This document shows positions 13,345 through 50,056 of a DNA stretch of 64,000 nucleotides, in pieces; position 1 is the stretch's first letter; each line of letters begins with the position of its first letter. Location of the stretch: the NCBI GenBank assembly GCA_965116885.1, contig OZ220741.1, positions 1,728,001 to 1,792,000 on the forward strand, written 5' to 3'. The stretch is from Candidatus Latescibacterota bacterium. Lineage in GTDB: Bacteria > Latescibacterota > UBA2968. The notes beneath the pieces are model-generated. The model did no database searches, was not told the origin of the DNA, and was given only the letters and a program-made list of their open reading frames with translations. The translations under genes were made by a program, and so were the position numbers.

Positions 13345-13365
13345 TTATGAAATGCAAAGGGACTT

Positions 13366-16300: not shown

Positions 16301-16638
16301 ATCTGGTAGAGATTGTAGAGGAGAGCGAGGATCAGACGGTTGTGGCGTTTATCTGTCAGGACGGCAAAAGCGTGGAGGTGAAACTGGTCAGGCCAGGTAT
16401 TGGTGTTGCAAATCTGGATTTTGATGGAGACGGTGCGGTTGGGTTCACGGATTTTTTGCTCTTTTCCAGCAAATTTGGTCTGTCGGAGGGGGATGCGGGT
16501 TTTGAAGCACAATACGATCTGGATGGTAATGGTATGGTGGGGTTCAGCGATTTTCTGATTTTTGTACAGGGATTTGGCAAACCAGTGAGTGGAAAACCCG
16601 TTGCTCTCCGGAATGGAGGAGAAAGATTGGGGTCGTGA
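13366..16638 (+). CDS. Chondroitinase ABC-like polysaccharide lyase (PL8) with a C-terminal dockerin/EF-hand-like tag
   Basis: LNFTGWRA, DQGWAEGS, IKPDYTGFHHRGIY..AY, GRYLSYGS, GWDWSMWPGTT, AYLDHG motifs; C-terminal DFDGDGAVGFTDF..YDLDGNGMVGFSDF. Confidence 0.88.
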   Translation: MMDLRRWIIIFAGGVIGMVNAAMAQNTPWRYDFEALSGSYRADAGSQVSLSTRRYKGGAQSLKWAWQNNGRIVFTDPAPGRSEVLIGFRAWVYNEEALDEVLTFGFGTESELSANNPRYQFEFGLNFTGWRAMWIHLREDARNNSYTGPRNGRVTAFEIRAPNSGAVYLDLIELVERIDSRRSPDAQVPFVNGGANTSGDKTREYRWSLNRLPGPLPSQITDDERRAFETIARRYEAWVLGDGVKNDQREPVRIRLNELTAYIRRGHSNLANYEIRRENDLILGKPLFAARSSYRPYFQSVFQNVLLRLVLDYRLNGNEEARDRVIDVFDYLHDQGWAEGSGVGALHHEFLRIASYAHAVYLMRDILEDTERLERELASLKWYSMFGELYEQTWDPGTNADFLRSVAMYRLLCILMMDDSPEKVANMRRYVVWLNNALDIAPGWLDTIKPDYTGFHHRGIYANAYAPNAFHVASVLVYLLHDTPFAVGDEKRDNLKQALLTSRIMANTYDISTAINGRFPLNTTVTDGLLPAYMYVALSYPSVDAELSGAFMQLWKPDSQLLIEGLFEQVASRIMYLHTPGAMQMMADFASAGYAPVAEPSGHWTLPYGALSIHRRADWMVSMKGWSKYVWDYESSVGGENPLGRYLSYGSMLIYASGNPVGREASGIVRDGWDWSMWPGTTVIRLSHEQLKHEGRDRNFSDETFVGGVNIEGQNGVFALKLHDTRFNTSFRAVKTVFCFDDVLVCLGSGIENDDGGHTTVTPLFQAAISEDRSTGVNGERVHAIPYTFSGIERQRAWLMDSRGNGYVIPDGEGLQVQRRVQTPGDFGNEGGTGAFELAYLDHGSAPQGASYHYAVLVQRSPDRVRVFANAPEYDVWQRDGQAHIVRHRGMKMTGYALFDKDARPTGGPVESVSLPSLVMSREVDDGLLLSVADPDFGWRWEIQTPHRQDGSLIVNQPSEPRKVEVIVRGKWRLDQSYDLVEIVEESEDQTVVAFICQDGKSVEVKLVRPGIGVANLDFDGDGAVGFTDFLLFSSKFGLSEGDAGFEAQYDLDGNGMVGFSDFLIFVQGFGKPVSGKPVALRNGGERLGS

Positions 16639-21666: not shown

Positions 21667-24648
21667 TCAGAACCCCTCAAACTGGCTCAGGTCTGCAATG
21701 CCGTCGGGCAGGGCGGCGATGTGCTGGGCAAGGGCGAGGCGCGATTGCTTGAGGTCGGGATCATCGACCATGATGAGCACGTCTTCGAAGAAGCTGTTGA
21801 TGGGGTCGCGCAATTCGGCCATGACCTGGATCAGGGCGGTGAGTTTGTCGTCGGCTGCATCCATTGTTTTGCGCGCGGCGAGATAGGCTTTGTGCAGTGC
21901 CTGGGAGGCTTCTTCGGGGTCGCGGTCAGGAGTGAGATCGTAGTGCTCTGAGAGGTCGCGCACAATGCGTTTGCACCGCGCATGGGCATGGAGGATGTCG
22001 AGCCATTGATCGGAATGGATTTGCGCGGTAAATGCCCGGGCAATCCGCTGGATTTGATAGGGGTCATCCAAATTTTCCGCAATCGCAGCGGAAATTGCGT
22101 CGTGGCGCAGGCCCTCGTCTCGCAGGACTACTTCGAGGCGACGGATAATGTAGTCAAAGGCTTCGTCGAGGGCATCTCGTTTGACTACAACGGACAAGTG
22201 ATTGGCGGCTACATTGAGGCCCTGGCGCAGGGGAAAATGCATTTTGTAACCGAGGAGATTTGAAAGCAGACCCAGGGTGTCGCGCCTGAGACCATAAGGG
22301 TCAGCATTTGAGCGGGGTTTGATGCCCACGCCAAAAAGACCGGCGAGGCTGTCGAGACGGTCGGCTATTGAGACAGCGAGACCGGGTTGTGTTTGGGGCA
22401 GTGAGTCGCCCGGGAAGCGCGGATGGTAATGGTCTTCAATGGCGCGCGCAACGGCTTTCGTTTCGCCGGAAGACAGGGCGTAGTAGCGGCCCATGATGCC
22501 TTGCAGAGAGGTCATTTCAACGACCATGCTGGTCGCCAGATCGGCTTTGCACAATACGGCTGCGCGCAGAGCCGTTTTTTTATTTTTTTCCCGAAGTCCA
22601 AGCGCGGCAGATAAGTCGTTGACGAGTTTTTCAACACGGCGGGTTTTGTCGCGCATAGAGCCGAGTTTTTCTTGAAAGGTGAGGGTGTCCAGGCGCGACA
22701 GAAAGTCGCCGAGTTTTTTGTTTGTGTCGTCTTCGTAAAAGAATCTGGCGTCGGCATATCTGGCGCGTATGACGTTTTCATTGCCTTTGACGACGAGGTC
22801 GGGGTCGTCGGGTATTCCGTTGCATACAGTGATGAAGTTGGGTTTGAGATCGCCTTTTTCGTCGAGTATTGGAAAATATCGCTGATGTTTTTTCATGACG
22901 GCGATGAGCATTTCGCGGGGTAGGGAAAGGCGCGCGCTTTCAAAGGTGCCACAAAGCGCGTGCGGGGCTTCGACGAGGTCGGTGACTTCGTCGATCAGGT
23001 CGGGATCGTCGGGCACGTTGCCGTCAATTTGTTGGGCTACTGTTTCGATTTGTTGTTTGATGGTTTCGCGCCGTTTGTCGCGGTTGACTACGATGCCGTG
23101 TTTTTGCATTTGCGCGCGATAGTCAGAAGCAGAAGCGATTTCGATTTCTGGCGAGGCGTTGGGGCGCAGCCCGCGACTCGTGCGTCCTGCTGTTGCGCGC
23201 GCATAAGTGAATGGGATGATTTGATCGCCAAAGAGAGCGACAATCCAGCGGAGGGGCCGCGGATATGCGATTCCTTCAGAATTCCAGCGCATGGTTTTGC
23301 CAAAGCTGAGTTTGGCGATGAGTTCGGGTAGCAGTTCAGAGAGGATTTCCTGGGTTTTGCGTCCGTAAATGGTGATGCCTGCCCAGACGTAGTCGTCGCG
23401 CTGTTCTACTTCTGACGGATCAATGCCCTGTCCGCGGGCAAATCCCTGAAGTGCTCGGGTGGGATCGCCGTCATTGTCATAGGCGATGCGGATGGCTGGT
23501 CCGCGCGCTTGTTTGATTTCATCGGGTTGCCGTCCCAGCAGATTTTTGACGATGGCATATTGTCTGCGCGGCGTACCGCTGACTTCGATGCTGTCGTACG
23601 TGAGATTTGCTTCGCCGAGGTGTTCGGGCAGCAGTTTTTCGAGTTGTGATATCGCGCTGACGACATCGGCAGGTGGCAGTTCTTCCGAGCCGATTTCGAG
23701 CAGGAGATCGGCGGCGTTTAATTCGGGCAGTTCTTCGGCTTCGGATACCAGTGGGGGCTTGTCCTTTAATGGTTTTATGAGGGGATGTCCCTGGTCTTCG
23801 CGTTGTTTGACATAGGCTTCGGCTATTTGGCGCGAGAGGTCGCGCATTTGGGCAAAAAAACGGGCGCGTTCGGTTACGCCAATGGCACCGCGCGTGTCGA
23901 GCAGATTAAAGGTGTGCGAGCAGCGAATGACGTAGTCGTGTGCGGGAATGACGAGGTCGCGGTCAAGAGCTGCCTGGGCTTCGGCTGTAAAGATGTCGTA
24001 CATGGATTTGAGGCGGTTGACGTCGGCCCAGTAGAATTCGTAGTTGCAGTATTCTATTTCTTGTCTTTTGAGGATGTCGCCATAAGTTACTGTGTCATTC
24101 CACTGCAATTGCCAGACTTCATCCACGCCTTGAAGATACATGGCAATGCGTTCGAGACCGTAGGTGATTTCAACGGCAACGGGATCGAGTTGCATGCCGC
24201 CCGCCTGCTGGAAATAGGTAAATTGCGTGATTTCCATGCCGTCTAACCACACTTCCCATCCCAGGCCCCATGCACCCAGAGCTGGGGATTCCCAGTTGTC
24301 TTCGACAAAGCGGATGTCGTGTGCTTTGCAATCGAGTCCCAGAGTTTCGAGGCTTTTGAGATACAGTTCCTGCGGGTTGCCGGGATCGGGTTTGAGGATG
24401 ACCTGATACTGGGTGTGCATTTGCATGCGGTTGGGATTTTCACCAAAGCGCCCATCGTCGGGGCGATAGGAGGGTTCAACATAAGCGACGTTCCAGGGTT
24501 CGGGGCCAAGTACGCGCAATACTGTGGCGGCGTTCATTGTGCCTGCGCCCACTTTTTCGCTGTAGGGTTGCCATATTATACAGCCGTTGTCGGCCCAGAA
24601 GCGCTCAAGGCGCATGATCAGGTCTTGAAAATTCAGGTGGTTGCTCAC
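21667..24648 (-). CDS. glyQS: Glycine--tRNA ligase, fused alpha and beta subunits
   Basis: Alpha: [38 protein letters not shown]. Beta: [31 protein letters not shown]. One ORF; GTG start at 24648 with GAGGA RBS. Confidence 0.96.
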
Positions 24649-24690
24649 GGTTGGTTCCTCGGTTGGTGTATCGTAGGGACAGAGGGTAGC

Positions 24691-24762
24691 GGGCGGGCAC
24701 AGGGGCACCGCCCCTACATGCAATGATCGTGTCCGTGTAGGGGACGGCCCCTGTGCCGTCCC
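24691..24762. repeat. Inverted pair of GTAG-type REP elements (REPIN-like)
   Basis: GGGCGGGCACAGGGGCACCGCCCCTAC (24691-24717, identical to 50076-50102) and GTAGGGGACGGCCCCTGTGCCGTCCC (24737-24762). Confidence 0.8.
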
Positions 24763-30875: not shown

Positions 30876-30925
30876 TGAATATAATGTTCAATGCAAAAAG
30901 AGAAAAGTGAACAATGTGTTCACTT
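30876..30925. promoter_or_regulatory. Tandem palindromic sites TGAAYA-N3-TGTTCA, putative bEBP enhancer (UAS)
   Basis: TGAATA-taa-TGTTCA (30876-30890) and AAGTGAACA-atg-TGTTCACTT (30905-30925); centres 32 bp apart. Confidence 0.55.
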
Positions 30926-31021
30926 CTCAATTCGATGTTCAGCCTGACTTTTACTCGATAATAATCTCTATACGAAATAAAAATAATGACTTACAAATAT
31001 TATTATTTTAAAAGTCCACAT

Positions 31022-31037
31022 TGGCATACATGTTGCA
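31022..31037 (+). promoter_or_regulatory. sigma54 (-24/-12) promoter
   Basis: TGGCATACATGTTGCA, i.e. GG-N10-GC matching TGGCA-N6-TTGCW, about 100 nt upstream of the operon's first ATG. Confidence 0.75.
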
Positions 31038-31138
31038 TGTATCTGTTTAAGCAGTAAAAAATCTGTATTGAATCGTATGGAGATTCACGCTCTGAGCCTC
31101 AAATATTTAGACAGCGTTTTATCGCACAGGAGAAAAAT

Positions 31139-31945
31139 ATGAACAAACAGAAAATACTGATTATAGATCACGACCCCGGCATTCTATCGACCCTTGTCGG
31201 ATTTCTGAGCGATGAACCTTATGACGTATGCACAGCGAGCAATGGGAAAGAAGGGCTTGAAATTTTGAGACGAGAGAAGATCGATCTCGCCATCGCTGAA
31301 ATGTATATGGGAGGTCTTGATGGGGTCGCGCTTTTGAAGCGCGTTGCAATTGAGAAAATTCAGACAAACGTCCTGATCATGGAAAGTGTTGTGCCCATGG
31401 AAATAGCCGAAAAAATACTCAAGGCTGGTACTGCAGGCGTACTGGACAAACCGACCAATAAGGACAAATTTTTGGCAAAGATCAAAAACAGCATCCCACT
31501 GAATGAAGGAGGATACAAGGTGTCGCGGGTCCGTGAAGCATCCCGTTCACAGCCCAGATCCTTTCAACAATTCTTAAACACCGGTCGAGAGAAGGTTTCA
31601 CCAGAGGCGTTGGAATCATTCTTGGAGGAGCGTTACAGAGATCCAGACCTGAAATTTGAAGACCTCACACGCCATTTTCGGATCACCCCACCGCACGGTC
31701 ATGTACTATTCAAAAAATTTTTTAACAAGACCTTCCGCGAAAAATTGCGAGAGGTCAGAATATCGCAAGCAGAGCATTTTTTATCGGGATCATCCCTGTT
31801 GATATATGAAATTGCACGCCTATGTGGGTTTCATTCATCAAGTCGTTTCTGTCACGCTTTCAAGAGGATACATGGCATTTCTGCTACCCAGTATCGAAAA
31901 AAATTTATGCGCGGAGAGATCGAGACGCTTTCGGAAGATGCCTGA
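31139..31945 (+). CDS. Atypical response regulator (pseudo-receiver plus AraC HTH)
   Basis: REC fold with DLAIAE (acceptor D replaced by E) and LDKP; C-terminal EIARLCGF..SRFCHAFKRIHGISATQYRK. Confidence 0.85.
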   Translation: MNKQKILIIDHDPGILSTLVGFLSDEPYDVCTASNGKEGLEILRREKIDLAIAEMYMGGLDGVALLKRVAIEKIQTNVLIMESVVPMEIAEKILKAGTAGVLDKPTNKDKFLAKIKNSIPLNEGGYKVSRVREASRSQPRSFQQFLNTGREKVSPEALESFLEERYRDPDLKFEDLTRHFRITPPHGHVLFKKFFNKTFREKLREVRISQAEHFLSGSSLLIYEIARLCGFHSSSRFCHAFKRIHGISATQYRKKFMRGEIETLSEDA

Positions 31946-32001
31946 GTTGAATGTTCATTTGTCTGGTCGAAATTCACTTTTAACAGTGGGCTACATGAGT
32001 T

Positions 32002-33282
32002 ATGGCACATAGTGAACAGGTTGTAAGATTCAATGGCTATCCACAAAAAGATGTGTCTTTTGAAAACACAGAGGCACGAGAAGCCCTCTCAACTTCGGGG
32101 ATTGGCTTCCGGTTTGTGCGCTATTTCTTGCTCACCATTTTGTGCGTTGTGGGAAGCATGGTCGCGTTTATCTGTCTTTTGGGATGGCATCTGGGCATGG
32201 AAATTACGATTGCAGGACAGGGTCGCTTGCAGCCTACTGCGCGTTATGAAGTGAAAGCACAGCGATCAGGCTTGATCCAGACGGTTTATGTGCAACACGG
32301 GCAAGAGATTGCACAGGGGGATTTGATGCTGACTTTGGATGATACCGATTTACGCACGGAATTGGAGCAACTTGAACATGAACTGGCGATGAATCAGAGT
32401 CGGCGTGTGGCTCTGGTATCAGAATTGCAACGCGAGCGTGCTGTTTTGGAGACAGAGATTGCACGGGCTGAAGTGGCGTATGAGACCGCACAGTTGCAAT
32501 TGGAACAGGTACGGCAAGAATACCAGATCTACCGCAAATACGCACCTTATCGCGAGGATGGGAGTGTGCGACCACCTGTTGATACATTGATCCCTATTCG
32601 GGTACACCAGACGCGGGTAGAGAGCGCAGAGGTAGAAATTGAGCGGGCAAAACGGCGGCTGGTCGCTCTGGACAATCGCAAGCAGGAACACGAGATGCTA
32701 AAACAGACGTATGAAAAATTACAGGTCAGCCATCGCCTTGTCAAAACTCGTATGGAACAGATGAAGATATACGCACCTGTTTCTGGAACGGTGTTGACGC
32801 GCGATTTGGATAAACGCGAGGGAGATCGCATTGAGGCGGGTGAGGCCGTGATTGAATTGGCCGAATTGCACAGTTGGCAAGCAAAGGTGATGATCCAGGA
32901 AGTGGATATCCCAAAGGTGAAAGAGGGACATAAGGTGCGAATATATGTAAATGCTTTTCCACACATGGAATACAAGATTTTTGAGGGCAGGGTGACAGAC
33001 GTGCCGAGAAAACCCGAGTCTATCACACCTATGGGCGCCGGTCTCGTACCGGGCGGTATGAGCACGGTTTATCCAGTGAAGATCAGTGTGATAGATCCGC
33101 ATTTATCTGACGGAGAATGTCCGCTTGCTTATGGGATGGGTGTAGAAGCCAAAATCGTGACAGAACGCGGTCCCATCGTTGACTTGCTGTGGAAGAAGTT
33201 TCTGAAAACCGTGGGCAAAATTGGGCGTCCTGAAATTTATCGGTTGGAAGAACCCCTTGAAACTGTACAGACCGGGAACTGA
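32002..33282 (+). CDS. HlyD family membrane fusion protein
   Basis: N-terminal TM, lipoyl-like VYVQHGQEIAQGD, coiled coil, IYAPVSGTV, AFPHMEY..FEGRV, GMGVEAKI. Confidence 0.9.
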   Translation: MAHSEQVVRFNGYPQKDVSFENTEAREALSTSGIGFRFVRYFLLTILCVVGSMVAFICLLGWHLGMEITIAGQGRLQPTARYEVKAQRSGLIQTVYVQHGQEIAQGDLMLTLDDTDLRTELEQLEHELAMNQSRRVALVSELQRERAVLETEIARAEVAYETAQLQLEQVRQEYQIYRKYAPYREDGSVRPPVDTLIPIRVHQTRVESAEVEIERAKRRLVALDNRKQEHEMLKQTYEKLQVSHRLVKTRMEQMKIYAPVSGTVLTRDLDKREGDRIEAGEAVIELAELHSWQAKVMIQEVDIPKVKEGHKVRIYVNAFPHMEYKIFEGRVTDVPRKPESITPMGAGLVPGGMSTVYPVKISVIDPHLSDGECPLAYGMGVEAKIVTERGPIVDLLWKKFLKTVGKIGRPEIYRLEEPLETVQTGN

Positions 33283-33290
33283 ATGAGCCA

Positions 33291-35006
33291 ATGCGTCAGA
33301 TATTCAAAATCATCAAAATGCTCCGGCCTTACTGGCGGTTTATCTTTCAATCTCTTCTCGTGGGCATCATGGTCATGTTCTTGCAAATCCCAGGACCGTA
33401 CATCACCAAGGTTTTGATTGATGACGTATATCCCCACAAAGACTATACGCTCCTAACCTTTATCCTGATTATAGGTGCTGTGCTCTCGACGGGGTTGGGA
33501 TTCACAAATTTATTGAGCAGCTATTTTAGTCGTTATGTGGGTGTCAACATGGGATTGGATTTCAAATCTCGATTTTACTCCCATGTACAGTCGTTGGACT
33601 TCAGCTTTTTTGACAACCGTCAGACGGGCGAAATCCTGTCTCGCTTCAGGGATATGGACAGATCTATCAACAGCACCATTGGAATGGTGAATAGCCTGAT
33701 TATGAACACCCTTCAGTTGCTCATCTTTCCACCTATTTTGCTTTATATCAACTGGAAACTCGCCTTGATCAGCCTGGCGGTGTTACCTTTTGATACTGTG
33801 TTAATTATGGTTTCTAAAAAATATCTCAGCAGAGTCTCAAAAAAAGTGACCGAAGCATCTGCTGAATTATCTGCTAAGTCCTACGAATCGCTTTCGGGCA
33901 TCCGGACAGTGCAAGCACTGGGACTGGAAGCCGCGTTTTATCACAAGCTCAGAGACATCTTTCTCGATGTTTCAAAATTGCAGATCCAATCAACGCATTT
34001 AAGTGGAGGATTTGGGTTTATAGGGTCGTTGGTGAAAACAGCGGGTACTCTGGCGTATGGATGGTATGGCTGGACGCAAGTTCTATCCGGCAATCTCTCT
34101 CTGGGCAGTTATATGGCTTTTTCGGGGTATGTAGGATATCTCTACGGTCCAATAGGCAATCTCATCGGCCTCGTAGGACAGGTTGAAATGGCTTTGGTTC
34201 GCATCAATCGCTTCTTTGAAGTCTATGACTTGAAACCCGATATCCAGGATCGTCCCGATATGGCTGTGTTGCCACAGGTGCGAGGTGAGATCAGTTTTCA
34301 CAATGTGAGTTTTTCGTATCAAGAAGATCAACCCGTTTTGCGTCACATCAACCTGCACATACCCGCACAGACCACCATTGCTCTGGTCGGCAAGAGTGGG
34401 TCTGGCAAATCTACACTTGCCAAATTGATCCCGAGATTTTACGACCCGCAAGAGGGATATGTGTCTATTGATGGGTACGATATTCGAAACTATCGCTTAA
34501 AATCCATCCGGCAGCAGGTTGGATTTGCGATGCAGGGTGGCACTTTGTTTCAGGGTAGTATTTTAGACAACCTGACCTTTGGACACGATATTCCAATGCG
34601 AGATGTCCAGGCTGCGACACAAGCAGCGTACATTCACGACTTCATCGCATCCTTACCCGAGGGCTATGAAACGCTGGTGGGTGAACAAGGGTCACAGATG
34701 TCGGAGGGACAGAAACAGCGTATTGCACTGGCACGCGTGCTATTGATGGACACGCCTATCCTGATATTAGATGAACCCACCGCCGCGTTGGATATGGAAT
34801 CTGAATATCATATCCAGGAGGCATTGAAAACCGTGCGACAAGGTAGGACAACCATCATCATCGCACATCGGCTTTCAACCATTCAAAACGCAGACGAGAT
34901 TGTGGTATTGGATGAGGGACAGATCGCAGAGCGAGGAACGCACGAATGGTTAGCCATGCAAGATGGAGTTTATGCCCACTTGTATGAAAAAACAGCAAGT
35001 ATATGA
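33291..35006 (+). CDS. ABC exporter (TMD plus NBD) without a C39 peptidase domain
   Basis: RQTGEILSRF (bacteriocin/T1SS-type TMD), GKSGSGKST, MSEGQKQR, LDEPTAALD. Confidence 0.92.
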   Translation: MRQIFKIIKMLRPYWRFIFQSLLVGIMVMFLQIPGPYITKVLIDDVYPHKDYTLLTFILIIGAVLSTGLGFTNLLSSYFSRYVGVNMGLDFKSRFYSHVQSLDFSFFDNRQTGEILSRFRDMDRSINSTIGMVNSLIMNTLQLLIFPPILLYINWKLALISLAVLPFDTVLIMVSKKYLSRVSKKVTEASAELSAKSYESLSGIRTVQALGLEAAFYHKLRDIFLDVSKLQIQSTHLSGGFGFIGSLVKTAGTLAYGWYGWTQVLSGNLSLGSYMAFSGYVGYLYGPIGNLIGLVGQVEMALVRINRFFEVYDLKPDIQDRPDMAVLPQVRGEISFHNVSFSYQEDQPVLRHINLHIPAQTTIALVGKSGSGKSTLAKLIPRFYDPQEGYVSIDGYDIRNYRLKSIRQQVGFAMQGGTLFQGSILDNLTFGHDIPMRDVQAATQAAYIHDFIASLPEGYETLVGEQGSQMSEGQKQRIALARVLLMDTPILILDEPTAALDMESEYHIQEALKTVRQGRTTIIIAHRLSTIQNADEIVVLDEGQIAERGTHEWLAMQDGVYAHLYEKTASI

Positions 35007-35061
35007 TATAAACTTGACCTTCGGGGGCTGTAGTATTCATTTCTTTGAAAGGAGAAACACA

Positions 35062-35445
35062 ATGAAAATCGTAAAGTTGCACAAACCTCAGCGGATGGGC
35101 AGTTTGGAAAACGTTCTTGCCTATTCTGGTGAGGAAGATGAACAGGCCCAGGCAGATTCTACTGCTACAGATAGTACGGGTGTGCAGAGAACGGATAGGG
35201 GATTTGAAACGACCCTTGAGGGAGATGATGGGCGCATTACATTTACATTGGACCTTCCTTTTGGTAAAAAAGAAGGAGCAGGAGACGATCCAGATAGTAC
35301 AATCGTCAGTGTCTCGGGGGGGTTATTTGGTGTTAGCGCGGGAATAGAGATAGCTGTTCCTATCCCTCCGCCTACCCCTCAGCCTGATTATATTACGCCT
35401 GGTGATGTAGAGTATGATCAGTTTGGCAGAAAACTTATTCATTAA
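35062..35445 (+). CDS. Putative precursor/substrate protein (127 aa) with a CLI_3235-like leader ending in VLAY
   Basis: AAGGAGA RBS; MKIVKLHKPQRMGSLENVLAY followed by an acidic, Cys-free core; directly after the exporter. Confidence 0.65.
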   Translation: MKIVKLHKPQRMGSLENVLAYSGEEDEQAQADSTATDSTGVQRTDRGFETTLEGDDGRITFTLDLPFGKKEGAGDDPDSTIVSVSGGLFGVSAGIEIAVPIPPPTPQPDYITPGDVEYDQFGRKLIH

Positions 35446-35634
35446 TCTGGATATTGAAAATTATAACCGTTCACAGGTTTTGCCCGATCTGAAAGCCGTG
35501 AACAGTTTTCTCAGCCCCCGAAGGCTTTTTGCAATACATTTTAACATTCTCAGCGCGTTGACGTGAATTAATGAATCAAGTATTTTATCCCAGATGTCCC
35601 TTATCCCTGTCCAGATAGACGAGAGAATGCTGTA

Positions 35635-36327
35635 ATGAAAAAGTTTCTGCTGTTGTGCCTTCCCCTTGTACATGCCGTTGCTTTCTATTATTTTGCGAGT
35701 TTTATTTTAGAACCTTATAAATCTCGTGGACAAGCTCAAATTTTGTCAAAAAAAGGAAATAAGTTTTTGAAGATTGGTGCCGTTGAAGAAGCTTTGAAGG
35801 CCTATCATCAGACAGTTGAATTAAATCCCGAAAATAAGTTTGCCTGGAATATCCTGGGCTTGATTTATAGAGACCAAGAAAAAAATCAAGACGCGCTTGA
35901 AGTTTATGACCAGGCACTTCAAATACTACCTCAAGCATCTATCTTATGGAATAATCGAGGTACTGTTTTGATGAAAATAGACGAATTGGAAAAAGCACTT
36001 CTTTCATTTGATCGCGCATTAGAACTTGACACCGAATATTCTGATGCCTGGAACAATAGAGGGGTTATATTTCTGGAGTTAGGCAGATTACCCGAAGCAA
36101 TCATAGCATTAGATCGGTCAATTGAACTGAATCCCCAAAATGGTAATACCTGGTATAACCTGGCCCGAGTATATGGAGCAATGAAAAATAAAGAACAGAC
36201 TCTTTCAAGCTTAAAAAGAGCACTCCAGTGGGATCCTGCCCGAAAAAAAAGAATTCACAAAGAGCCAGCTTTCAAATTTTTATTGGCAGACGAAAGTTTT
36301 AAGATGTTGAGCAACAAACTGGATTAA
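35635..36327 (+). CDS. Membrane-anchored TPR protein
   Basis: N-terminal hydrophobic helix; about 5 TPRs (AWNILG, LWNNRG, AWNNRG, TWYNLA). Confidence 0.88.
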   Translation: MKKFLLLCLPLVHAVAFYYFASFILEPYKSRGQAQILSKKGNKFLKIGAVEEALKAYHQTVELNPENKFAWNILGLIYRDQEKNQDALEVYDQALQILPQASILWNNRGTVLMKIDELEKALLSFDRALELDTEYSDAWNNRGVIFLELGRLPEAIIALDRSIELNPQNGNTWYNLARVYGAMKNKEQTLSSLKRALQWDPARKKRIHKEPAFKFLLADESFKMLSNKLD

Positions 36328-36346
36328 ACAGAATTGGAATTATTCT

Positions 36347-37087
36347 ATGGCTCCAGGATCATCAATTGAAGAAGCCCCTAAAACGGAATCTGTACAAGAG
36401 AACTGGCCGCCAGCACTCCAGGTGCCTTTGGCAAAGGGTTTGACCTGGTCTTGTTTAATTATCCTGGAAGGTGTGATTGTGTGGAGACTTGTATCGCCAC
36501 CAAGGGGTTTCGTGAATGCCCTTATGCAAGGGTTGCATCTTCTCTTAGTGCTTTTTGTTTTGGTTCAATTCGGACGGTTTGAGTTAAAGAAAATGGTGTC
36601 TTATGATATTCCCCCTAAACGCGTATTCTTCTTCTGGATATATGCAGGTATAGGTCTAACAGCGTATTATTTACCCCTTAATTTCTGGGAAGGCCTCGGT
36701 GCCCAACCTCCAGACTTTGTTTTTCAGTATCTATGCCTTTTTATTGCACGGGTTATATTAGCACCAATTGAAGAAGAGCTTCTTTACAGAGGTCTGCTTT
36801 ACGGAACGATCAGGACAAAATATGGAAAATTTAAGGCTTATGTCATTAGTATTTCAATCTTTGTTTTTAGCCATAGACGTTTATGGCCTTATATCATAGA
36901 GGGTTATTGGGATTTATTTTTTGTGTACTTGATTGCATTGACAGTGATTGCTTGTCTTTTAACCTATCTCTACGAATCTAAGCGCAGCCTTCTGTTATGT
37001 ATGGCTTTTCATAGCTCTGCAAATATTAATGTCACTATTACACCTCTTCTTGGATTTCTGTATGGCGGCTATATCGTCAGCAAGTGA
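36347..37087 (+). CDS. CPBP (Abi/CAAX) intramembrane metalloprotease, possibly immunity or processing
   Basis: APIEEELLYRG, FVFSH, FHSSAN motifs. Confidence 0.88.
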   Translation: MAPGSSIEEAPKTESVQENWPPALQVPLAKGLTWSCLIILEGVIVWRLVSPPRGFVNALMQGLHLLLVLFVLVQFGRFELKKMVSYDIPPKRVFFFWIYAGIGLTAYYLPLNFWEGLGAQPPDFVFQYLCLFIARVILAPIEEELLYRGLLYGTIRTKYGKFKAYVISISIFVFSHRRLWPYIIEGYWDLFFVYLIALTVIACLLTYLYESKRSLLLCMAFHSSANINVTITPLLGFLYGGYIVSK

Positions 37088-37114
37088 TTTTTAAACTTCT
37101 CAAAGAGTAAAAAA

Positions 37115-37840
37115 ATGTATCAAATGCATCCCTTAAACAAAAACGATTTACATCACTATGCTACTTTTTTGAGAGATATTCAGACACACCATTGGTCCTT
37201 GTCTTCAAATGCTTTTCAAAGACAGCCAAACCCTGAATGCCTGCCCAGCTATGAAGAACTTATTGAGGACTTGAGCAATTTAGAGTACTCGGTCATCTAT
37301 TTACTCAAGCGAAATCACCGCATTATTTCATCCATGAAAATAACCCAAAAGAAATCTGAGTCCGGTGTGCTCATTTTTTCTCATGTAGAAACCCATCCCG
37401 ACTTTCAGAAACGCGGAACTTTTGGACTGGCATTGGGGGATGCGTGTTTGAGAGCGGTCTGCGGATCTGAGTGTAAACGCATCGAAATTACGACCTGGTC
37501 GTTCAATCGAAAAGGGATTCCGCTTTATAAACGCTATGGATTTCGTGCGATACCAGGCACCAATCTTTTGATGGAAAATTATCTGCCAGCTATTGTGAAG
37601 CATGTAGATGCACAACCCTATTTTGCTCGCCATGATTATATTCGTACACTCTATAACAAACGCAGTTATGGGTATGATGCTATTGAAATGAATGGCTCAA
37701 GTGTCTTTGAGTATCGCTGGAAGCCGAGAAAGGCTGATGACACATTGCGCGTGTTGGTTGATTGGAAAAAAAAAGAAATCATGGATGTGAAATGCAAGAT
37801 CATGGATTCACCATCATTAGTTAGAGAATGTCATGCGTAG
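37115..37840 (+). CDS. GNAT family N-acyltransferase
   Basis: VETHPDFQKRGTFG (motif A) and NRKGIPLYKRYGF (motif B). Confidence 0.85.
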   Translation: MYQMHPLNKNDLHHYATFLRDIQTHHWSLSSNAFQRQPNPECLPSYEELIEDLSNLEYSVIYLLKRNHRIISSMKITQKKSESGVLIFSHVETHPDFQKRGTFGLALGDACLRAVCGSECKRIEITTWSFNRKGIPLYKRYGFRAIPGTNLLMENYLPAIVKHVDAQPYFARHDYIRTLYNKRSYGYDAIEMNGSSVFEYRWKPRKADDTLRVLVDWKKKEIMDVKCKIMDSPSLVRECHA

Positions 37841-39734
37841 AGAAAATTCCTCTCAAATCCGGATTGCCATTGTCGATAGCGGCATAGACGCATCGCATTC
37901 TGGTGTGCGTGATGTTGCAGGTGGTGTTCATATTCAGATTGGGGAGAAAGGCGAGGTCGTGTTGTCAGATGATTATTACGACTGTGCAGGCCATGGCACG
38001 GCGTGTGCCGGGATTATTCGAAAGAAGGCACCTGATGCAGCACTGTATAGCGTGCGGATTTTTGATGACTCTTTGATGGCGGATGGCCGAGCACTCATTG
38101 CGGCGATTCAGTGGTGTATTGACAATGAGATGGATGTAGTGAATTTGAGCCTGGGCACGACGGATGTGACGTTTAAGAAATCTCTTCAAAAGGTGTGTCG
38201 CAAAGCGGTTGACGCTGGCGTGATTCTCGTAGCTGCTGAGAGCAATGACGGGGGTGAAAGTTATCCTGCGGTATTTCCCGAAGTGATTGGTGTGACGGGT
38301 AGTGCGATCCATGAAGTAGATGGATTTTACTACCGTAAGGATCATCGCATCGAATGTGTGGCGCGAGGCGATGATCAGCGTGTGTGCTGGTTAAACGGAA
38401 AACATATTATGACGGGGGGAAATAGCTTTGCTGCGCCGCATATCACGGGCATTATCGCACACCTGTTGGAGCAGCATCCAAAATGTTCGGTTCAAGATAT
38501 TCGGTTATTATTAAAAGAAAAAGTATTAAACGAAATATCTCAAGATCGAAATAAGTCCAAATCTGATCGTCAGGCACACCGAAAAGATTTTCAAGAGGAT
38601 TATTCTTGGATAAACAAAGCCGTGCTATATCCGTATAACAAAGAGATGCACAGCCTGGTGCGCTATCGTGATTTGCTTGCGTTTGAGATTGTCGGCGTCG
38701 CCGATCCCATTGGCAAGGGGATGGTGGGCAAGGATGCAGGCCAGGTGATTGGGGAACCCCATGCAAATTTGCGGATTAGCCCAAATATCCGCCGCGCAAT
38801 GGCAGATGCGGATACGCTTATCCTCGGGTATGTGGATCAACTATCTCGCATCCGCAAGCGCGATTTGTTGAGAGAATATGTGCAATTGGCTCTTGATGAG
38901 GGATGCCATGTGTTCAGTTTTCAGGCACTTGATCCAACCGTTTACGGCGATCTGTATGATACATCGGGCAAAAAGGGACTGAACCTTGCCTATCCTCATA
39001 TTCATAGAGAAGAACTTGCACAGGCGATTCAGCATTTCAACGCGCTTCCACCTGTGGATGTGCCAGTGCTTTCTGTGATGGGGACGAGTTCTCAACAGGG
39101 CAAGTTCACGTTGCAACTCGCGCTCAGGCGTAGGCTCATCCAAAAGGGCTATAAAGTCGGGCAGATCGGCACTGAACACCATTCCCGGTTATTCGGCATG
39201 GATGCTGCTTTTCCAATGGGTTACGCTTCACCGCTCAAACTGCCATTTCAACATTACATACCGTATTTGGATTACAAAATGCGAGAAATTTGCCAGCGCA
39301 CACAGCCCGATATTATCCTGACAGGCTCTCAATCGGGAACTATTCCCTATCATGTCCAGGAACACAGTACACATTGCTTGTCTTCACTGGCATTTTTACT
39401 GGGGGTAAAACCCGATGCCTGCATTCTGGTGGTCAATAGTATTGATGCAGAAGAATACATACGCGATACCATAGATGGCATACGTGCGGTGTGCAAAGCA
39501 TTGACCATCTTGCTGGCGATGGGCGACCACGAAAAACACATCCGAACAGCTTATGGGCGCAGTATGATCACGCCCGAAAAGATGGCACAAGTCCAAATAG
39601 AACAGCACTTAAAAAAACTACAAGATACGTTTTGTGTGCCTGCGATTGAAATTCTTTCAGAGATAGGTCAACAGCGTCTTGTGGAAACTGTGATTCGATA
39701 TTTTTCAAAGGATGATACAGCAGGTATTGCATAG
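37833..39734 (+). CDS. S8 subtilase fused to a TIGR04066/DUF1611-like peptide-maturation domain
   Basis: Triad IVDSG / HGTACAG / GNSFAAP, no signal peptide; C-terminal part KAVLYPYNKE..GKDAG and VPVLSVMGTSSQQGKFTLQLALR..GYKVGQIGTE. Confidence 0.8.
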   Translation: MRRENSSQIRIAIVDSGIDASHSGVRDVAGGVHIQIGEKGEVVLSDDYYDCAGHGTACAGIIRKKAPDAALYSVRIFDDSLMADGRALIAAIQWCIDNEMDVVNLSLGTTDVTFKKSLQKVCRKAVDAGVILVAAESNDGGESYPAVFPEVIGVTGSAIHEVDGFYYRKDHRIECVARGDDQRVCWLNGKHIMTGGNSFAAPHITGIIAHLLEQHPKCSVQDIRLLLKEKVLNEISQDRNKSKSDRQAHRKDFQEDYSWINKAVLYPYNKEMHSLVRYRDLLAFEIVGVADPIGKGMVGKDAGQVIGEPHANLRISPNIRRAMADADTLILGYVDQLSRIRKRDLLREYVQLALDEGCHVFSFQALDPTVYGDLYDTSGKKGLNLAYPHIHREELAQAIQHFNALPPVDVPVLSVMGTSSQQGKFTLQLALRRRLIQKGYKVGQIGTEHHSRLFGMDAAFPMGYASPLKLPFQHYIPYLDYKMREICQRTQPDIILTGSQSGTIPYHVQEHSTHCLSSLAFLLGVKPDACILVVNSIDAEEYIRDTIDGIRAVCKALTILLAMGDHEKHIRTAYGRSMITPEKMAQVQIEQHLKKLQDTFCVPAIEILSEIGQQRLVETVIRYFSKDDTAGIA

Positions 39735-39742
39735 GAGGGGTT

Positions 39743-40018
39743 ATGTCTATTGAACATCGGGTCAAACAGGTGATCATTCGCACGTTGTCTCTTGAAGTTG
39801 AAGCAGACGAAATTGACGATGAAGACGAGCTTTTTGGAGGTGGCCTGGGTATTAATTCGATGGCGACGATTGAAATTATTGTGGGTCTGGAAGAAGAATT
39901 TGGCATTGAGGTGCCAGATGAAGATTTGCGCGTGGAACTGTTTGATAGCGTGCAAACCATGGCCGACTATGTTCGCGCAGTGTTACAGAAAGTACCTGCT
40001 GCCGGATATATAGAATAG
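39743..40018 (+). CDS. Acyl/peptidyl carrier protein
   Basis: LGINSMATIEIIVGLEEEFGIEV; phosphopantetheine Ser retained. Confidence 0.9.
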   Translation: MSIEHRVKQVIIRTLSLEVEADEIDDEDELFGGGLGINSMATIEIIVGLEEEFGIEVPDEDLRVELFDSVQTMADYVRAVLQKVPAAGYIE

Positions 40019-40061
40019 ATTTTTCGCTCACACTCGGATGACATAGCTTTTGAGACACATC

Positions 40062-41081
40062 ATGCAAAAAATACTTCCCATCCAGGTATCCCCACCCATA
40101 CATGGCTATCCTCGCCATGGCTATCGGCTTTCGATTATGTCGCTTCACGATGCGTATATTCCCTGGTTCTTCTGCAATTACATCCAACTCTTCGCCGTTG
40201 ACCTGTTGCATGAGAACAAACACAATATCCGATTCAACTTCTATTTTCAGGGACCGTACTCCCCACCGTGGCTGTCTATCTACACCGTTCCGAGGCGATC
40301 AATTGCCAAAGTCTATCATCAGATTGTGCCGTTTATTCGGGACCAGATTGATGAGGGCTTCTATGTCCAGTTAACAGCCGACGAGTATTTCCTGCCGCAT
40401 ACGCCATTTTATGAGAAAATACATCATCCACATGCTATTATGGTATTCGGATACGATGACGATACAGAAACGCTTGAGACTCTGGGATTTAATAGAGCGC
40501 GGGACTACTCTGTTTCAAGGGTTGGGTATTCAGATTTTGAAGCGGCGTTTCGCTGGATTGATCCCGAGAAACGCAGATCGTACCGGATAGATCTTTTTGA
40601 GTATAACGAGGACGGTGTCTATGAGTTTGATATTGATGCTGTCATTGACCAGTTGCGAGCTTATGTCCATTCCGAGAATTCGTCTATCTACTATCGGACG
40701 TTGCGCAAGCCAGTTGAAGGCGTTTTTGGGATGGCGACGTATAAGCTCTTACGAGATTATTTTACGCATTTGTTTGTTCATCCCCGGTTGTGGGATCGGC
40801 GGCATCTGTTCACGCTTTGGGAGCACAAGCGTTGTATGCTGAACAGGCTTGCTTATCTGGAGGAGCGCGGGTATTTGCGTCCGTCAGACCAGTTTCATCA
40901 GGCGTACAAGGAGGTTGAGCATAAGGCGCATCAGATTCATCTGATGATGCTTAAGTTGCGAGCGCTAGGGGAGGTCAAGAGAACGTGGGATGTGGAACGT
41001 ATTTTGAAGATTATCACCTTGTTAAATGATATTTCTCAAAGGGAGGAGCGCATTTTGAAGGATGTTTTGACAGCTCTTTGA
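40062..41081 (+). CDS. BtrH-like (butirosin BtrH / papain-like fold) protein, possible ACP-dependent acyltransferase
   Basis: ADEYFLP..FY..HHPHAIMVFGYDD motif typical of the BtrH_N-like family; adjacent to the ACP. Confidence 0.6.
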   Translation: MQKILPIQVSPPIHGYPRHGYRLSIMSLHDAYIPWFFCNYIQLFAVDLLHENKHNIRFNFYFQGPYSPPWLSIYTVPRRSIAKVYHQIVPFIRDQIDEGFYVQLTADEYFLPHTPFYEKIHHPHAIMVFGYDDDTETLETLGFNRARDYSVSRVGYSDFEAAFRWIDPEKRRSYRIDLFEYNEDGVYEFDIDAVIDQLRAYVHSENSSIYYRTLRKPVEGVFGMATYKLLRDYFTHLFVHPRLWDRRHLFTLWEHKRCMLNRLAYLEERGYLRPSDQFHQAYKEVEHKAHQIHLMMLKLRALGEVKRTWDVERILKIITLLNDISQREERILKDVLTAL

Positions 41082-41096
41082 GGCGCGTACACTAAT

Positions 41097-41138
41097 ATCC
41101 CCTATCGCGCGTTATTGCGATGGGGGATTGGTTTTTTT
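41097..41138 (+). terminator. Terminator closing the maturation operon
   Basis: ATCCCCTATCGC..GCGATGGGGAT then a T-run. Confidence 0.6.
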
Positions 41139-48598: not shown

Positions 48599-50056
48599 TT
48601 ACATGGGTCCAATGCGTTCAGGACCTCTGTCCATTGCGAGCATTGACGCATCAAAGCTGCGTTGCATTAAGTCGAGTTTTACATCCGCATGATCGGGACT
48701 GTCCCAAAGATTGTCAAATTCGTCTGGATCCTCTCGTAAGTCGTAGAGTTCGCCCAGGCCGTGTCCGTGATAGACCACGAGTTTGTACCGTCGGTTGCGA
48801 TACATTGTGGCAAATGTTCCGTCGGCTTGATCGAGTGCATCGTAATATTCACAGCGCACAAAATCGCGGTGTTCGTCGGGGGGTTGATCCCCGCTGAGCA
48901 GGGGCAATAGAGGATGCGGTTGCATGCGCTCGGGCACTTCTATACCAGCGAGTTCCAACAAGAGGGGGGCTATGTCGCGCAATTCGACGAGGGCATCGCT
49001 TTTTTGTTCCGATTTTACGTGACCAGGCCATGAGAAAATGAGTGGTACGCGCACCAGTCCTTCGTAAAAACGACATCCCTTTTGGATCAGTCCGTGGTCT
49101 CCCAGGGTTTCGCCGTGGTCGCTGGTAAAGATAATCAATGTGTTGTCGCGCTGTCCAGTTTCTTCCAATGCGGCTATTATGCGCCCGAGTTGGTCGTCGA
49201 TCAGTTTGATCATGGCGTAATAGGCGGCGATCAGGGTTTTTGCATCGCGTTTTCCGGCTGACTCAGATTCGTGCAATCCGCGCGTCGGTGTTCTGGGGAT
49301 CACGGGGCTTCTGATATCTAATTCATCGGGATGCTGGCCCTTGGACTGGAAGTCGATGGCTTCCAATTTTTCTTGCTGCGCGAGGTCGCTTTCTCGAAAT
49401 AGCGGGCCGTTTACCTGTTCGGGATGGAACATTTCGCGGTACGTTTTGGGTGGGTTAAATGGCGGATGTGGGTCGTAGATGTTCACAGAGGCCAACCAGG
49501 GTCCATCGCGCTGTTCGCTCAAAAATTCGATGGTTTTTTCTGCACACCAGGTGGTCTGGTGCAGTTCTGCGGGTACGCCGTCGGGACTTTTGATGAGTTC
49601 GCCCAATATCTCGCCTTTTGATCGTACCCAGTCGGCATAATCGTGTCCGGTTTTCCAGTCGTCCCGGGGCGCGTGGCTGTATTGCCAGTAGCGGTATCCG
49701 TCATCTGTTCTTTTTTCTATGCGTCCATGCGCGCTCGATAAGTGCAATTTGCCGATTAGTCCGCAGTCGTATCCGTTGTCTGCGAGTATTTTGGTGACCA
49801 GGGGTGGCGCGTCTGGGAAATGCGAGTTGCCATTGCCGTTTACGTGTACGGCGCTGGCGTATTGTCCGGTCAAAAAACTCGTCCGGCTCGGTGTGCAGAT
49901 CGGACTCTGGCAATACGCATGGGTAAATGCAAATCCTTCGGCGATCAGGCGGTCGATATTGGGGGTATCTACATGGGGATTGCCCAATGCGCCGATGGTG
50001 TCATATCGCTGCTGGTCTGTGCAGATCCACAAGATGTTTGGTTTTGTTCCTTTCAT
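48599..50056 (-). CDS. Sulfatase (FGly-dependent, Cys-type)
   Basis: NILWICTDQQR, CTPSR, GKLH, PHPP, SDHG. Confidence 0.95.
   Translation of the reverse strand: MKGTKPNILWICTDQQRYDTIGALGNPHVDTPNIDRLIAEGFAFTHAYCQSPICTPSRTSFLTGQYASAVHVNGNGNSHFPDAPPLVTKILADNGYDCGLIGKLHLSSAHGRIEKRTDDGYRYWQYSHAPRDDWKTGHDYADWVRSKGEILGELIKSPDGVPAELHQTTWCAEKTIEFLSEQRDGPWLASVNIYDPHPPFNPPKTYREMFHPEQVNGPLFRESDLAQQEKLEAIDFQSKGQHPDELDIRSPVIPRTPTRGLHESESAGKRDAKTLIAAYYAMIKLIDDQLGRIIAALEETGQRDNTLIIFTSDHGETLGDHGLIQKGCRFYEGLVRVPLIFSWPGHVKSEQKSDALVELRDIAPLLLELAGIEVPERMQPHPLLPLLSGDQPPDEHRDFVRCEYYDALDQADGTFATMYRNRRYKLVVYHGHGLGELYDLREDPDEFDNLWDSPDHADVKLDLMQRSFDASMLAMDRGPERIGPM

Follow-up and report, generated by a model that had tools for sequence, protein, structure and literature searches.

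Double-glycine-leader bacteriocins and microcins are served by an ATP-binding cassette (ABC) exporter carrying a C39 peptidase, a HlyD-type accessory protein and CPBP (Abi) immunity proteins, and in goadvionins, lipolanthines and selidamides a ribosomal peptide is combined with acyl chemistry delivered by a carrier protein, in some of them with a GNAT enzyme. Here we analyze an operon built around a fusion of an S8 peptidase with a DUF1611-like domain, an acyl carrier protein (ACP) and a BtrH/CtaG-like protein, located in a 64,000-nucleotide stretch of Candidatus Latescibacterota bacterium (contig OZ220741.1, positions 1,728,001 to 1,792,000; this whole stretch is called the window below). Its nearest described counterpart appears to be the CLI_3235/CcpM system (families TIGR04065-04069). 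SacP23, the CLI_3235 peptide of Paenibacillus polymyxa, was expressed and is reported to be an active bacteriocin (PMC10731318); its cluster has the same accessory set, and in the portion of that report available to us the TIGR04066 and ACP-related genes are given only guessed roles (PMC10731318). For the peptidase, the accessible part of the work on QhpE states that it cuts a leader in the cytoplasm ahead of ABC export (PMC7876137). For the carrier-protein chemistry, CtaG is described in the accessible text as a papain-like ligase with a Cys11/His128/Asp144 triad that joins carrier-bound substrates via amide bonds by a ping-pong mechanism, with BtrH and AsbE as structural homologs whose donors are carrier-bound and whose acceptors are free (PMC12865890).

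We estimate that there is about an even chance that this locus serves the production, maturation and export of a small, fast-evolving, bacteriocin-like secreted protein, as a branch of the CLI_3235/CcpM type that is free of radical S-adenosylmethionine (rSAM) enzymes. By analogy with the characterized systems, leader cleavage and export would be the well-supported part, and acyl transfer to the precursor is a step that we infer; nothing points to a fatty acyl group or a lipid. The combination of genes in the operon has not been described before. It is best filed as a known kind of system, namely leader-dependent maturation and export of the type found for bacteriocins and for peptides that are made on ribosomes and modified after translation (RiPPs), with a new part, an rSAM-free and uncharacterized carrier-protein module, which may define a ribosomal/thiotemplate hybrid.

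The operon consists of ten co-oriented open reading frames (ORFs) on the forward strand from 31139 to 41081, with short or overlapping junctions. Domain calls were made by Pfam and NCBIfam scans of the window ORFs, judged against the family cut-offs. The features are as follows.

31139-31945, + strand: response regulator with a receiver domain and an AraC-type helix-turn-helix (Pfam Response_reg 70 bits, HTH_18 58.6 bits)
32002-33282, + strand: HlyD-family periplasmic adaptor (HlyD_3 57 bits)
33291-35006, + strand: ABC exporter, a half-transporter with transmembrane and nucleotide-binding domains (ABC_membrane at residues 21-287, ABC_tran at 350-498)
35062-35445 (reading frame from 34963), + strand: precursor of 127 residues, with AGGAG 5' of the ATG at 35062; no family
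35635-36327, + strand: TPR protein with a hydrophobic N-terminus, cassette member (TPR_1 131.5 bits)
36347-37087, + strand: CPBP/Rce1-like protein of intramembrane protease fold, immunity-like, cassette member (Rce1-like 55 bits)
37115-37840, + strand: GNAT-fold acyltransferase, cassette member (Acetyltransf_1 20.5 bits, cut-off 20.7)
37833-39734, + strand: fusion of an S8 peptidase with a DUF1611/TIGR04066-like domain (Peptidase_S8 94.2 bits; DUF1611 37.4 bits, cut-off 25)
39743-40018, + strand: ACP of 91 residues, with Ser39 in the motif G-I-N-S-M (PP-binding 43.9 bits)
40050-41081, + strand: BtrH/CtaG-like, papain-fold putative transacylase (BtrH_N, PF14399, 26.5 bits, cut-off 29.7)
41097-41138, + strand: intrinsic-terminator-like hairpin with a 13-bp stem followed by a T-run, at the end of the operon
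30902-30928: palindrome with 12-nucleotide arms, 5' of the regulator gene

An earlier interpretation made from the letters alone (the sequence-only reading) had described a ten-gene, co-oriented and AT-richer block, which the ORF calls and the GC profile bear out. Every domain call in its gene inventory was reproduced with Pfam and NCBIfam, with GNAT and BtrH_N below threshold and backed by Atlas and by fold search, respectively.

Leader peptides, the S8-DUF1611 fusion and their recurrence

Judging from the sequence, ATG 35062 is the most probable start of the precursor, rather than 34963. Its leader comprises residues 1-21 (35062-35124) and ends in V-L-A-Y, and the core that follows has 106 residues, is acidic, contains no cysteine and includes one uncharged run of 17 residues. 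We compared it with small ORFs that follow the ABC gene in related loci; these loci, designated by L-numbers, are a set of 63 retrieved with the fusion protein from species-representative genomes. The leaders share a consensus of M-x-x-L-x-K, a basic stretch and V/I-x-A-Y, after which comes S/G/E/H/D-x-E. For counting we used a curated, not exhaustive, set of 28 precursors, obtained from a regular-expression leader scan (33 ORFs) that was pruned and supplemented with candidates found otherwise. ORFs were pruned if no basic N-terminus preceded the motif or if they were nested in a larger gene (L010 9263, L023 6223, L024, L026, L034, L035, L036, L052 19625 and L058). The leader Tyr is present in all 28, preceded by Ala in 24, Leu in three and Gly in one, and an alignment of 20 sequences has invariant columns at M1, L6, K8, A20 and Y21. 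With Tyr in the P1 position, Ala in P2 and a hydrophobic residue in P4, the end of the leader would offer a classical subtilisin-type cleavage context. The 28 leaders are 19-27 residues long with isoelectric points (pI) of 7.8-11.2, and the cores have pI values of 4.1-4.7 except for a 12-residue core in L059 (pI 6.4); lysine is absent from six of the cores.

The core types are mutually unrelated. Long Gly/Ala-rich uncharged runs occur in L022, L046, L060 and L007, and such runs, present in several cores, would be typical of membrane-active bacteriocins. No NCBIfam match, TIGR04065 included, was obtained at E up to 10 for the window precursor and nine related precursors; the window precursor also matched no Pfam family, and an Atlas search with it gave no usable match. 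It does have 37 unnamed clusters of homologs, at 40-98% identity. We also considered whether the conserved N-terminal 21-mer could itself be the product, as in an Agr-like signal, and rejected this because the part after the Tyr in L059 is a 12-residue Cys-rich core beside an rSAM gene, and because the immunity-like genes co-vary with the C-terminal parts.

In the fusion protein, the S8 peptidase occupies residues ~8-237 and a DUF1611/TIGR04066-like domain, with Rossmann and P-loop elements, residues ~256-633. The S8 triad (D15/H54/S198) is invariant, and no signal peptide was found on the protein. The best model for the S8 domain is QhpE (NF049966) at 162.2 bits, just short of the equivalog cut-off of 165. 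TIGR04066 matches residues 261-555 at 131.3 bits (E 4e-38), under its curated cut-off of 200, which at this level would mean clear homology and not membership by curated score. The DUF1611-like domain passes the Pfam gathering score, and its predicted structure (mean predicted local distance difference test, pLDDT, 87.9) resembles the DUF1611 structures 2g0t and 2obn with template-modeling (TM) scores of 0.63-0.73 and 7xrj, titled N-acetyltransferase DgcN in the PDB, with TM scores of 0.57/0.63; CoA-binding and P-loop ligase folds are matched more weakly. Two motifs of the domain, G-T-x4-G-K and the N-terminal Y-P-Y-N-K-E-M-H, stay invariant in sequences of as little as 30% identity. In a protein database, 651 clusters matched the fusion at E <= 0.001 among 7999 candidates scored, and nearly all clusters among the matches listed have both Peptidase_S8 and DUF1611; E. 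coli genomes have no similar protein. Our literature search did not find DUF1611 with an ACP in a RiPP context. In a metagenome-assembled genome (MAG) of Kryptoniota, L058 9983-12271 encodes a QhpE-like S8 domain (residues 13-238) fused to ABC membrane and ATPase domains. By analogy this would be the S8 counterpart of the C39-ABC bacteriocin transporters, and the direct fusion supports a role of S8 as an export-coupled leader peptidase.

Among NCBIfam models, the window's own exporter, a protein of 571 residues, scores best with those for MsbA, HlyB and bacteriocin-ABC types, each time under the cut-off. No C39 peptidase domain was found in it; the TIGR01193 match begins only at model position 144, and because ABC_membrane already begins at residue 21 there is no N-terminal peptidase domain. 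The HlyD adaptor scores 92 bits against TIGR01843 (type I HlyD), also under the cut-off, and is 91-94% identical in the closest loci. Homologs of the regulator stand in the equivalent position in L007, L010, L013 and L015, at 72-83% identity.

The fusion-bearing loci lie nearly all in Latescibacterota MAGs. One Latescibacterota chromosome of 5.7 Mb (OZ244847.1) carries six of them (L001, L014, L015, L017, L020 and L045), and several further genomes carry two. Against the closest loci, blastp gives 91-95% identity for HlyD and the ABC exporter, 86-91% for the fusion, 87-94% for the ACP and 88-93% for the BtrH-like protein; the precursor, in contrast, is 37-65% identical or gives way to a core of unrelated sequence, with the genes of the cassette exchanged as well. 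Co-occurrence was counted over loci that matched the fusion in its two halves and extended for 5 kb or more to both sides of it (44 of 63; 19 dropped). Of these 44 evaluable loci, 41 have an ACP, 40 an ABC exporter and three an rSAM gene within 10 kb; a BtrH-like gene is strongly matched in 29 and weakly in four. Because the S8-DUF1611 fusion and the ACP recur together in 41/44 loci, the arrangement does not appear to be due to chance.

No rSAM gene was found in the 64-kb window, either by phmmer with three rSAM/SPASM queries against reading frames of at least 60 residues or in family scans of 49 flanking window ORFs (12 against NCBIfam, 37 against Pfam). With the same queries, homologs were detected in only five of the 63 loci, namely L038, L039, L053, L059 and L061, and we therefore place the window in an rSAM-free branch of the CLI_3235/CcpM system. 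In L053, from Bacteroidota, the order is ABC, HlyD, precursor, rSAM/SPASM enzyme, fusion and ACP, and the precursor has 137 residues, the same leader type and ten Cys. In L059, from Erysipelotrichaceae, the rSAM/SPASM enzyme is accompanied by an ACP-like ORF, a precursor, the fusion and two ABC genes; its precursor has 39 residues, with a leader ending in G-Y ahead of the Cys-rich core. In L061 an rSAM gene lies beside the S8 gene. As a separate observation, genes for an ANT(6)-like nucleotidyltransferase and a tyrosine recombinase/integron-integrase-like protein (12239-13105 and 13392-14405) follow directly after the ACP gene of L053. The rSAM genes of L053, L059 and L061, together with the two Latescibacterota loci L038 and L039, in which an rSAM gene lies 6-8 kb upstream, could mean that the window belongs to an ordinary CcpM/CLI_3235-type system that has its rSAM maturase and Cys-rich precursors at another place in the genome. 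We regard this as extremely improbable, since the window precursor has no Cys, phmmer and the scans of 49 flanking ORFs found no rSAM gene in the 64-kb window, and 41 of 44 evaluable loci are without one within 10 kb.

Four distant Latescibacterota loci (L017, L018, L023 and L031) combine the fusion, ACP and BtrH-like genes with glycosyltransferases (GT28-C or GT4), and also hold MauE/DoxX, rhodanese, thioredoxin-like, Yip1, DUF5128 beta-propeller and MacB-type pump genes, an indication that this core may be combined with further kinds of tailoring chemistry; Pfam found no Radical_SAM in 70 ORFs of these loci.

Taken against these results, much of the sequence-only reading holds up. Its exporter without C39, its absence of rSAM from the locus and of Cys from the precursor, and its pattern of S8-DUF1611, ACP and BtrH-like genes without rSAM all agree with what was found (fusion and ACP in 41 of 44 evaluable loci, BtrH-like genes in 33, rSAM in three). 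The kinship that it drew to the Clostridial TIGR04065-04069 genes is supported by L053 and L059, where the fusion, ACP and leader type are paired with Cys-rich cores and rSAM/SPASM enzymes, and its sequence of leader cleavage and then C39-less ABC/HlyD export would fit the sequence evidence. The family searches that it called for gave a mixed result: S8, DUF1611 and PP-binding scored above cut-off, TIGR04066 (131.3 bits) and BtrH_N (26.5 bits) matched under theirs, TIGR04069 reached only 17.2 bits, and TIGR04065 and TIGR04068 gave nothing. It had made no mention of the leader motif and its conservation, of cores that are hypervariable and come with immunity-like cassettes, or of the expansion to multiple copies in Latescibacterota.

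The carrier protein and the BtrH/CtaG-like protein

The ACP gene lies 32 nucleotides upstream of the BtrH-like gene. Its product scores 17.2 bits against TIGR04069 (cut-off 70) and 64.6 bits against PRK07081 (cut-off 72), and is rich in Asp and Glu. The phosphopantetheine Ser, which the sequence-only reading had seen to be kept, is invariant in 49 of 49 ACPs. It could be imagined that the ACP and the DUF1611 domain play an accessory part in recognizing the leader, in cleavage or in hand-over to the exporter, with no acyl transfer at all; the acidic ACP could, for example, chaperone the basic leader. The opposite character of leaders and ACP would fit this, as would the NCBIfam name of the Clostridial counterpart, merely 'acyl carrier-related', and the dispensability of the BtrH-like gene in 11 of 44 loci. 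We nevertheless consider it very unlikely in view of the invariant Ser, the invariance of the P-loop-like motif of the DUF1611 domain and the repeated presence of thiotemplate enzymes, either BtrH-like or with peptidyl carrier protein (PCP) and condensation/epimerization (C/E)-like domains, in the slot next to the ACP.

The BtrH-like protein likely starts at ATG 40062. Its predicted structure (pLDDT 72.7) has a bipartite fold, with a papain-like N-domain and a helical C-domain, and Foldseek matched it to CtaG, CcbD and AziU3/U2 at E values of 4e-7 to 1e-5 and TM scores of 0.44-0.61, among 19 matches at E <= 0.001; CcbD has also been solved with its PCP. It was this fold comparison only, and not sequence search, that linked the protein to relatives in the PDB. 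An alignment of 16 sequences offers a candidate triad of C42, H128 (nearly invariant) and D136 (invariant). The BtrH-like identity proposed in the sequence-only reading is thus reinforced, on the strength of the model, by the fold of the carrier-dependent ligases CtaG, CcbD and AziU3/U2, as well as by relatives in which it forms a terminal domain. An exhaustive profile search found 4664 representatives of the family at E <= 0.001, 1311 of them at E <= 1e-30, where a word-index homolog search with the single protein had returned eight clusters only. We scanned the domains of three long members taken from the best 150. In two the BtrH-like part is the terminal domain, of an adenylation (A)-PCP-BtrH-like protein of 972 residues and of a 2689-residue protein of the order ketosynthase (KS)...C-A-PCP...BtrH-like; the third had BtrH_N only.

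A further replacement occurs in L048, where a protein of 907 residues (12165-14888) with a homolog in L049 follows the ACP in place of the stand-alone BtrH-like gene. Its first 350 residues are BtrH/DUF4872-like (23.5 bits with the L023-type profile; Pfam DUF4872 E 0.073), and it continues with a PCP and a C/E-like domain, a part whose best PDB matches are PvdL and the PCP-E regions of TycA and GrsA. Thiotemplate amide chemistry therefore recurs in the slot behind the ACP.

These relatives would also suit a different explanation, in which the DUF1611 domain, the ACP and the BtrH-like ligase leave the precursor alone and instead make or transfer a separate thiotemplated metabolite, such as an amide-linked signal, a siderophore-like compound or a co-factor, exported beside a protein that is leader-cleaved and otherwise unmodified. 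The characterized fold relatives CtaG, CcbD, BtrH and AsbE all serve small-molecule pathways, members of the family are fused to nonribosomal peptide synthetase (NRPS)/polyketide synthase (PKS) modules, L048 and L049 have the PCP-C/E-like protein, and in L017, L018 and L031 the ACP gene is separated from the BtrH-like gene by glycosyltransferases. We think this unlikely, however, because in 53 of 63 loci the DUF1611 domain and the leader peptidase form one fused protein, because the pair of fusion and ACP tracks leader-bearing precursors over three phyla and because Pfam and NCBIfam scans of the operon reveal no adenylation, ATP-grasp or other building-block enzyme.

In the scheme that we prefer, maturation of a secreted protein, the 127-residue precursor would enter with its conserved, basic 21-residue leader ending in V-L-A-Y. 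The cytoplasmic S8 domain, for which QhpE is the closest model, would remove this leader by a cut after the invariant Tyr21. The DUF1611-like domain, the holo-ACP and the BtrH/CtaG-like transacylase would handle a unit held on the ACP as a thioester and transfer it to the precursor as an amide; passing the unit on may fall to the BtrH-like ligase, to the DUF1611 domain or to the two together, and one may load or relay it and the other transfer it. The most economical acceptor would be the alpha-amine freed by cleavage, because it is the sole amine common to all cores, six of 28 being without Lys. An aminoacyl or small acyl unit would be at least as likely as a fatty acyl one. As their families suggest, the C39-less ABC transporter and the HlyD adaptor would export the product, and the CPBP, TPR and GNAT genes that accompany each precursor type would protect the producer or tailor that cargo. 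In the window, CPBP and TPR may provide protection, and GNAT may tailor the Ser-Gly-Glu-Glu N-terminus of this cargo or add immunity. The regulator with its receiver and AraC-type domains would presumably control expression.

A bolder possibility, which we hold to be less likely than not, is that the S8-DUF1611 fusion, the ACP and the CtaG/BtrH-type ligase cleave and cap, swapping the leader for a non-ribosomal unit delivered by the carrier, with an amino acid, which might have D-configuration, or a short acyl group as candidates. The cargos would then be many unrelated proteins of 50-130 residues, and the whole would be a general, rSAM-independent ribosomal/thiotemplate hybrid pathway for secreted proteins, with up to six paralogous loci per Latescibacterota genome.

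Goadvionins and lipolanthines are acylated RiPPs made via an ACP and a GNAT. The sequence-only reading had favored lipidation of the product, and a fatty acyl chain as the added unit, giving a lipidated, membrane-anchored or membrane-targeted protein, could be argued from the stand-alone ACP, which a fatty-acid synthase (FAS) could charge, and from the GNAT in the window cassette. We found no evidence for lipidation and judge it distinctly unlikely: Pfam and NCBIfam scans found no ketosynthase, acyl-ACP synthetase or fatty-acid gene at the locus, the characterized fold relatives move aminoacyl, aryl or peptidyl groups, and L048 and L049 point to amino-acid-type thiotemplate chemistry. Nor does GNAT belong to the shared system. 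It is missing from most loci and lies immediately 5' of the fusion in only 9/63, and for this reason we treat it as part of a swappable cassette and not of the conserved core.

Several results weigh against the reading that we prefer. The BtrH_N score is below the Pfam cut-off, and six of 14 family members likewise give sub-threshold matches; hhalign against L023-type paralogs that pass BtrH_N and DUF4872 returns a probability of 44% (E 2.3e-4), and searches of PDB sequences with the single BtrH-like sequence or its profile recovered no relative. In the structural model, residues 14-70, around the proposed nucleophile, have pLDDT below 50, and the C42 column holds Cys in seven and Ser in nine of 16 sequences, which fits catalysis and fits a non-catalytic role too. 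The BtrH-like gene is absent from 11 of the 44 evaluable loci, including the close relatives L009, L010 and L052, so the ligase is not indispensable to the core. There is no obvious gene in the operon for an adenylating or ATP-grasp enzyme that would load the ACP, no characterized TIGR04066, TIGR04069 or related protein was found in the searchable literature, and the acidic window core is no obvious membrane-active bacteriocin. The literature search did not find BtrH in a RiPP context either.

The exchangeable cassette, boundaries and flanking genes

Across loci, the genes that separate the ABC gene from the fusion gene are exchanged. The window-type precursor occurs in only six loci, at 37-65% identity, and the other loci have unrelated small ORFs instead, accompanied by different CPBP or TPR proteins or by small membrane proteins with a zinc-ribbon. 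A TPR gene accompanies the CPBP gene in L002, L003, L004, L013, L009 and L016, and CPBP genes adjoin unrelated precursor types in L001, L007, L048 and L060 and likewise in L005 and L010. The GNAT call is backed by Atlas (score 0.96; 10/10 best matches GNAT) and by weak PDB matches to GNAT N-terminal acetyltransferases, and the GNAT stop codon overlaps the start of the fusion gene.

Three arrangements in this interval stand out. L003 (2600-10000) has three TPR-CPBP-GNAT modules in tandem 5' of the fusion, two of them with a truncated GNAT, together with two different precursors (983-1387 and 1966-2379), and looks like an array of orphan cassettes. In L046 (7932-9917) and L060 (6878-9304), runs of paralogous proteins of ~110-125 residues flank the precursor. 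In each of these proteins a CxxC...CxxC zinc-ribbon precedes a pair of hydrophobic helices, and they may be another kind of immunity protein. The cassette slot of L045 (7793-9853) encodes a 686-residue TPR protein with an embedded Peptidase_C39_2-like domain, beside a different precursor type.

The operon has a GC content of 0.39-0.49 within a background of 0.51-0.57 in the flanks, with the minimum (0.39-0.41) over the cassette at 35000-37500. Of the two boundaries claimed in the sequence-only reading, the terminator stands (the hairpin at 41097-41138), whereas the REP, a repetitive extragenic palindromic element, is no more than a candidate: the sequence is a palindrome with 12-nucleotide arms (30902-30928), which could be an operator or an opposite-strand terminator. 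Family scans identify the flanks as housekeeping genes, among them a fused glycine-tRNA ligase, an aspartate carbamoyltransferase and a monomeric isocitrate dehydrogenase, along with a YceI-like protein, a DUF58/VWA protein and a chromate transporter. The glycine-tRNA ligase (21667-24723, - strand) has alpha and beta subunits in one chain of 1018 residues (PRK14908 1198 bits, cut-off 1244). Elsewhere in the window are a polysaccharide lyase family 8 protein of 1090 residues (13366-16638, + strand) and a sulfatase (48599-50056, - strand), a hint that the organism may degrade glycosaminoglycan-type polysaccharide.

Significance and comparison with known systems

If the proposed scheme is true, it would give a function to the orphan TIGR04066/DUF1611 and 'ACP-related' proteins, long annotated beside peptide-maturation genes, and would bring the protease-like thiotemplated ligases (CtaG, BtrH, AsbE) into the maturation of ribosomal peptides and proteins. 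The V-x-A-Y end of the leader is a search handle for many unannotated hypervariable secreted proteins in a phylum without a cultured model. Should the cargos prove antagonistic, they would form a sizeable untapped pool of bacteriocin-like molecules, with a portable set of leader, peptidase and exporter.

The locus resembles the double-glycine bacteriocins in its leader, hypervariable core, dedicated ABC/HlyD pair, CPBP gene beside a toxin-like gene and orphan cassettes, and differs from them in a leader that ends in A-Y and not G-G, in a separate cytoplasmic S8 peptidase in place of C39 and in the carrier-protein module. Unlike the loci for goadvionins, lipolanthines and selidamides, it has no PKS or FAS genes, its candidate transferases are of the DUF1611 and BtrH/CtaG types, and its cargo is in the range of 50-130 residues.

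In the QhpC/D/E/F system, which matures the gamma subunit of quinohemoprotein amine dehydrogenase, a cytoplasmic subtilisin-like protease likewise strips the leader of a small protein before transport by an efflux-type ABC protein (PMC7876137), as in our model for the window. The MauE, rhodanese and thioredoxin-like genes of the distant paralogous loci are a further point of resemblance. The window nevertheless lacks the rSAM enzyme QhpD, QhpG and the dehydrogenase subunits, and its S8 domain stays below the QhpE cut-off. Its type of cargo is hypervariable where Qhp has a single conserved enzyme subunit, and the ACP, DUF1611 and BtrH-like parts are extra.

The BtrH-like protein shares its predicted fold and bipartite architecture with CtaG (closthioamide), BtrH (butirosin), AsbE (petrobactin) and CcbD, and has candidate Cys/His/Asp columns and an adjacent carrier protein. 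Identity to them is only 10-14%, it sits in a locus with a ribosomal precursor and not in a small-molecule pathway, and the nucleophile column is Ser in many of its paralogs. The DUF1611 domain is in turn like the solved family members (2g0t, 2obn, 7xrj) in fold and in the G-T-x4-G-K motif, and unlike them in being fused to a peptidase and paired with an ACP, at 14-15% identity.

With the CLI_3235/CcpM system the locus has in common the S8 leader peptidase, the TIGR04066-type protein and the ACP-type protein, as well as the ABC exporter and a short N-terminal leader; in the part of the SacP23 report available to us the leader of that cluster has 19 residues (PMC10731318), within the range of the present loci. 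It differs in having no rSAM/SPASM enzyme (TIGR04068), in a Cys-free precursor of 127 residues as against about 40-60, in the fusion of S8 and TIGR04066 and in an ACP that scores as generic PP-binding and not as TIGR04069, and it adds the BtrH/CtaG-like ligase, the HlyD adaptor and the CPBP/TPR/GNAT cassettes. L053 and L059 form a link between the two systems, for their leader and core meet at the same x-Y-(S/T/E)-E junction.

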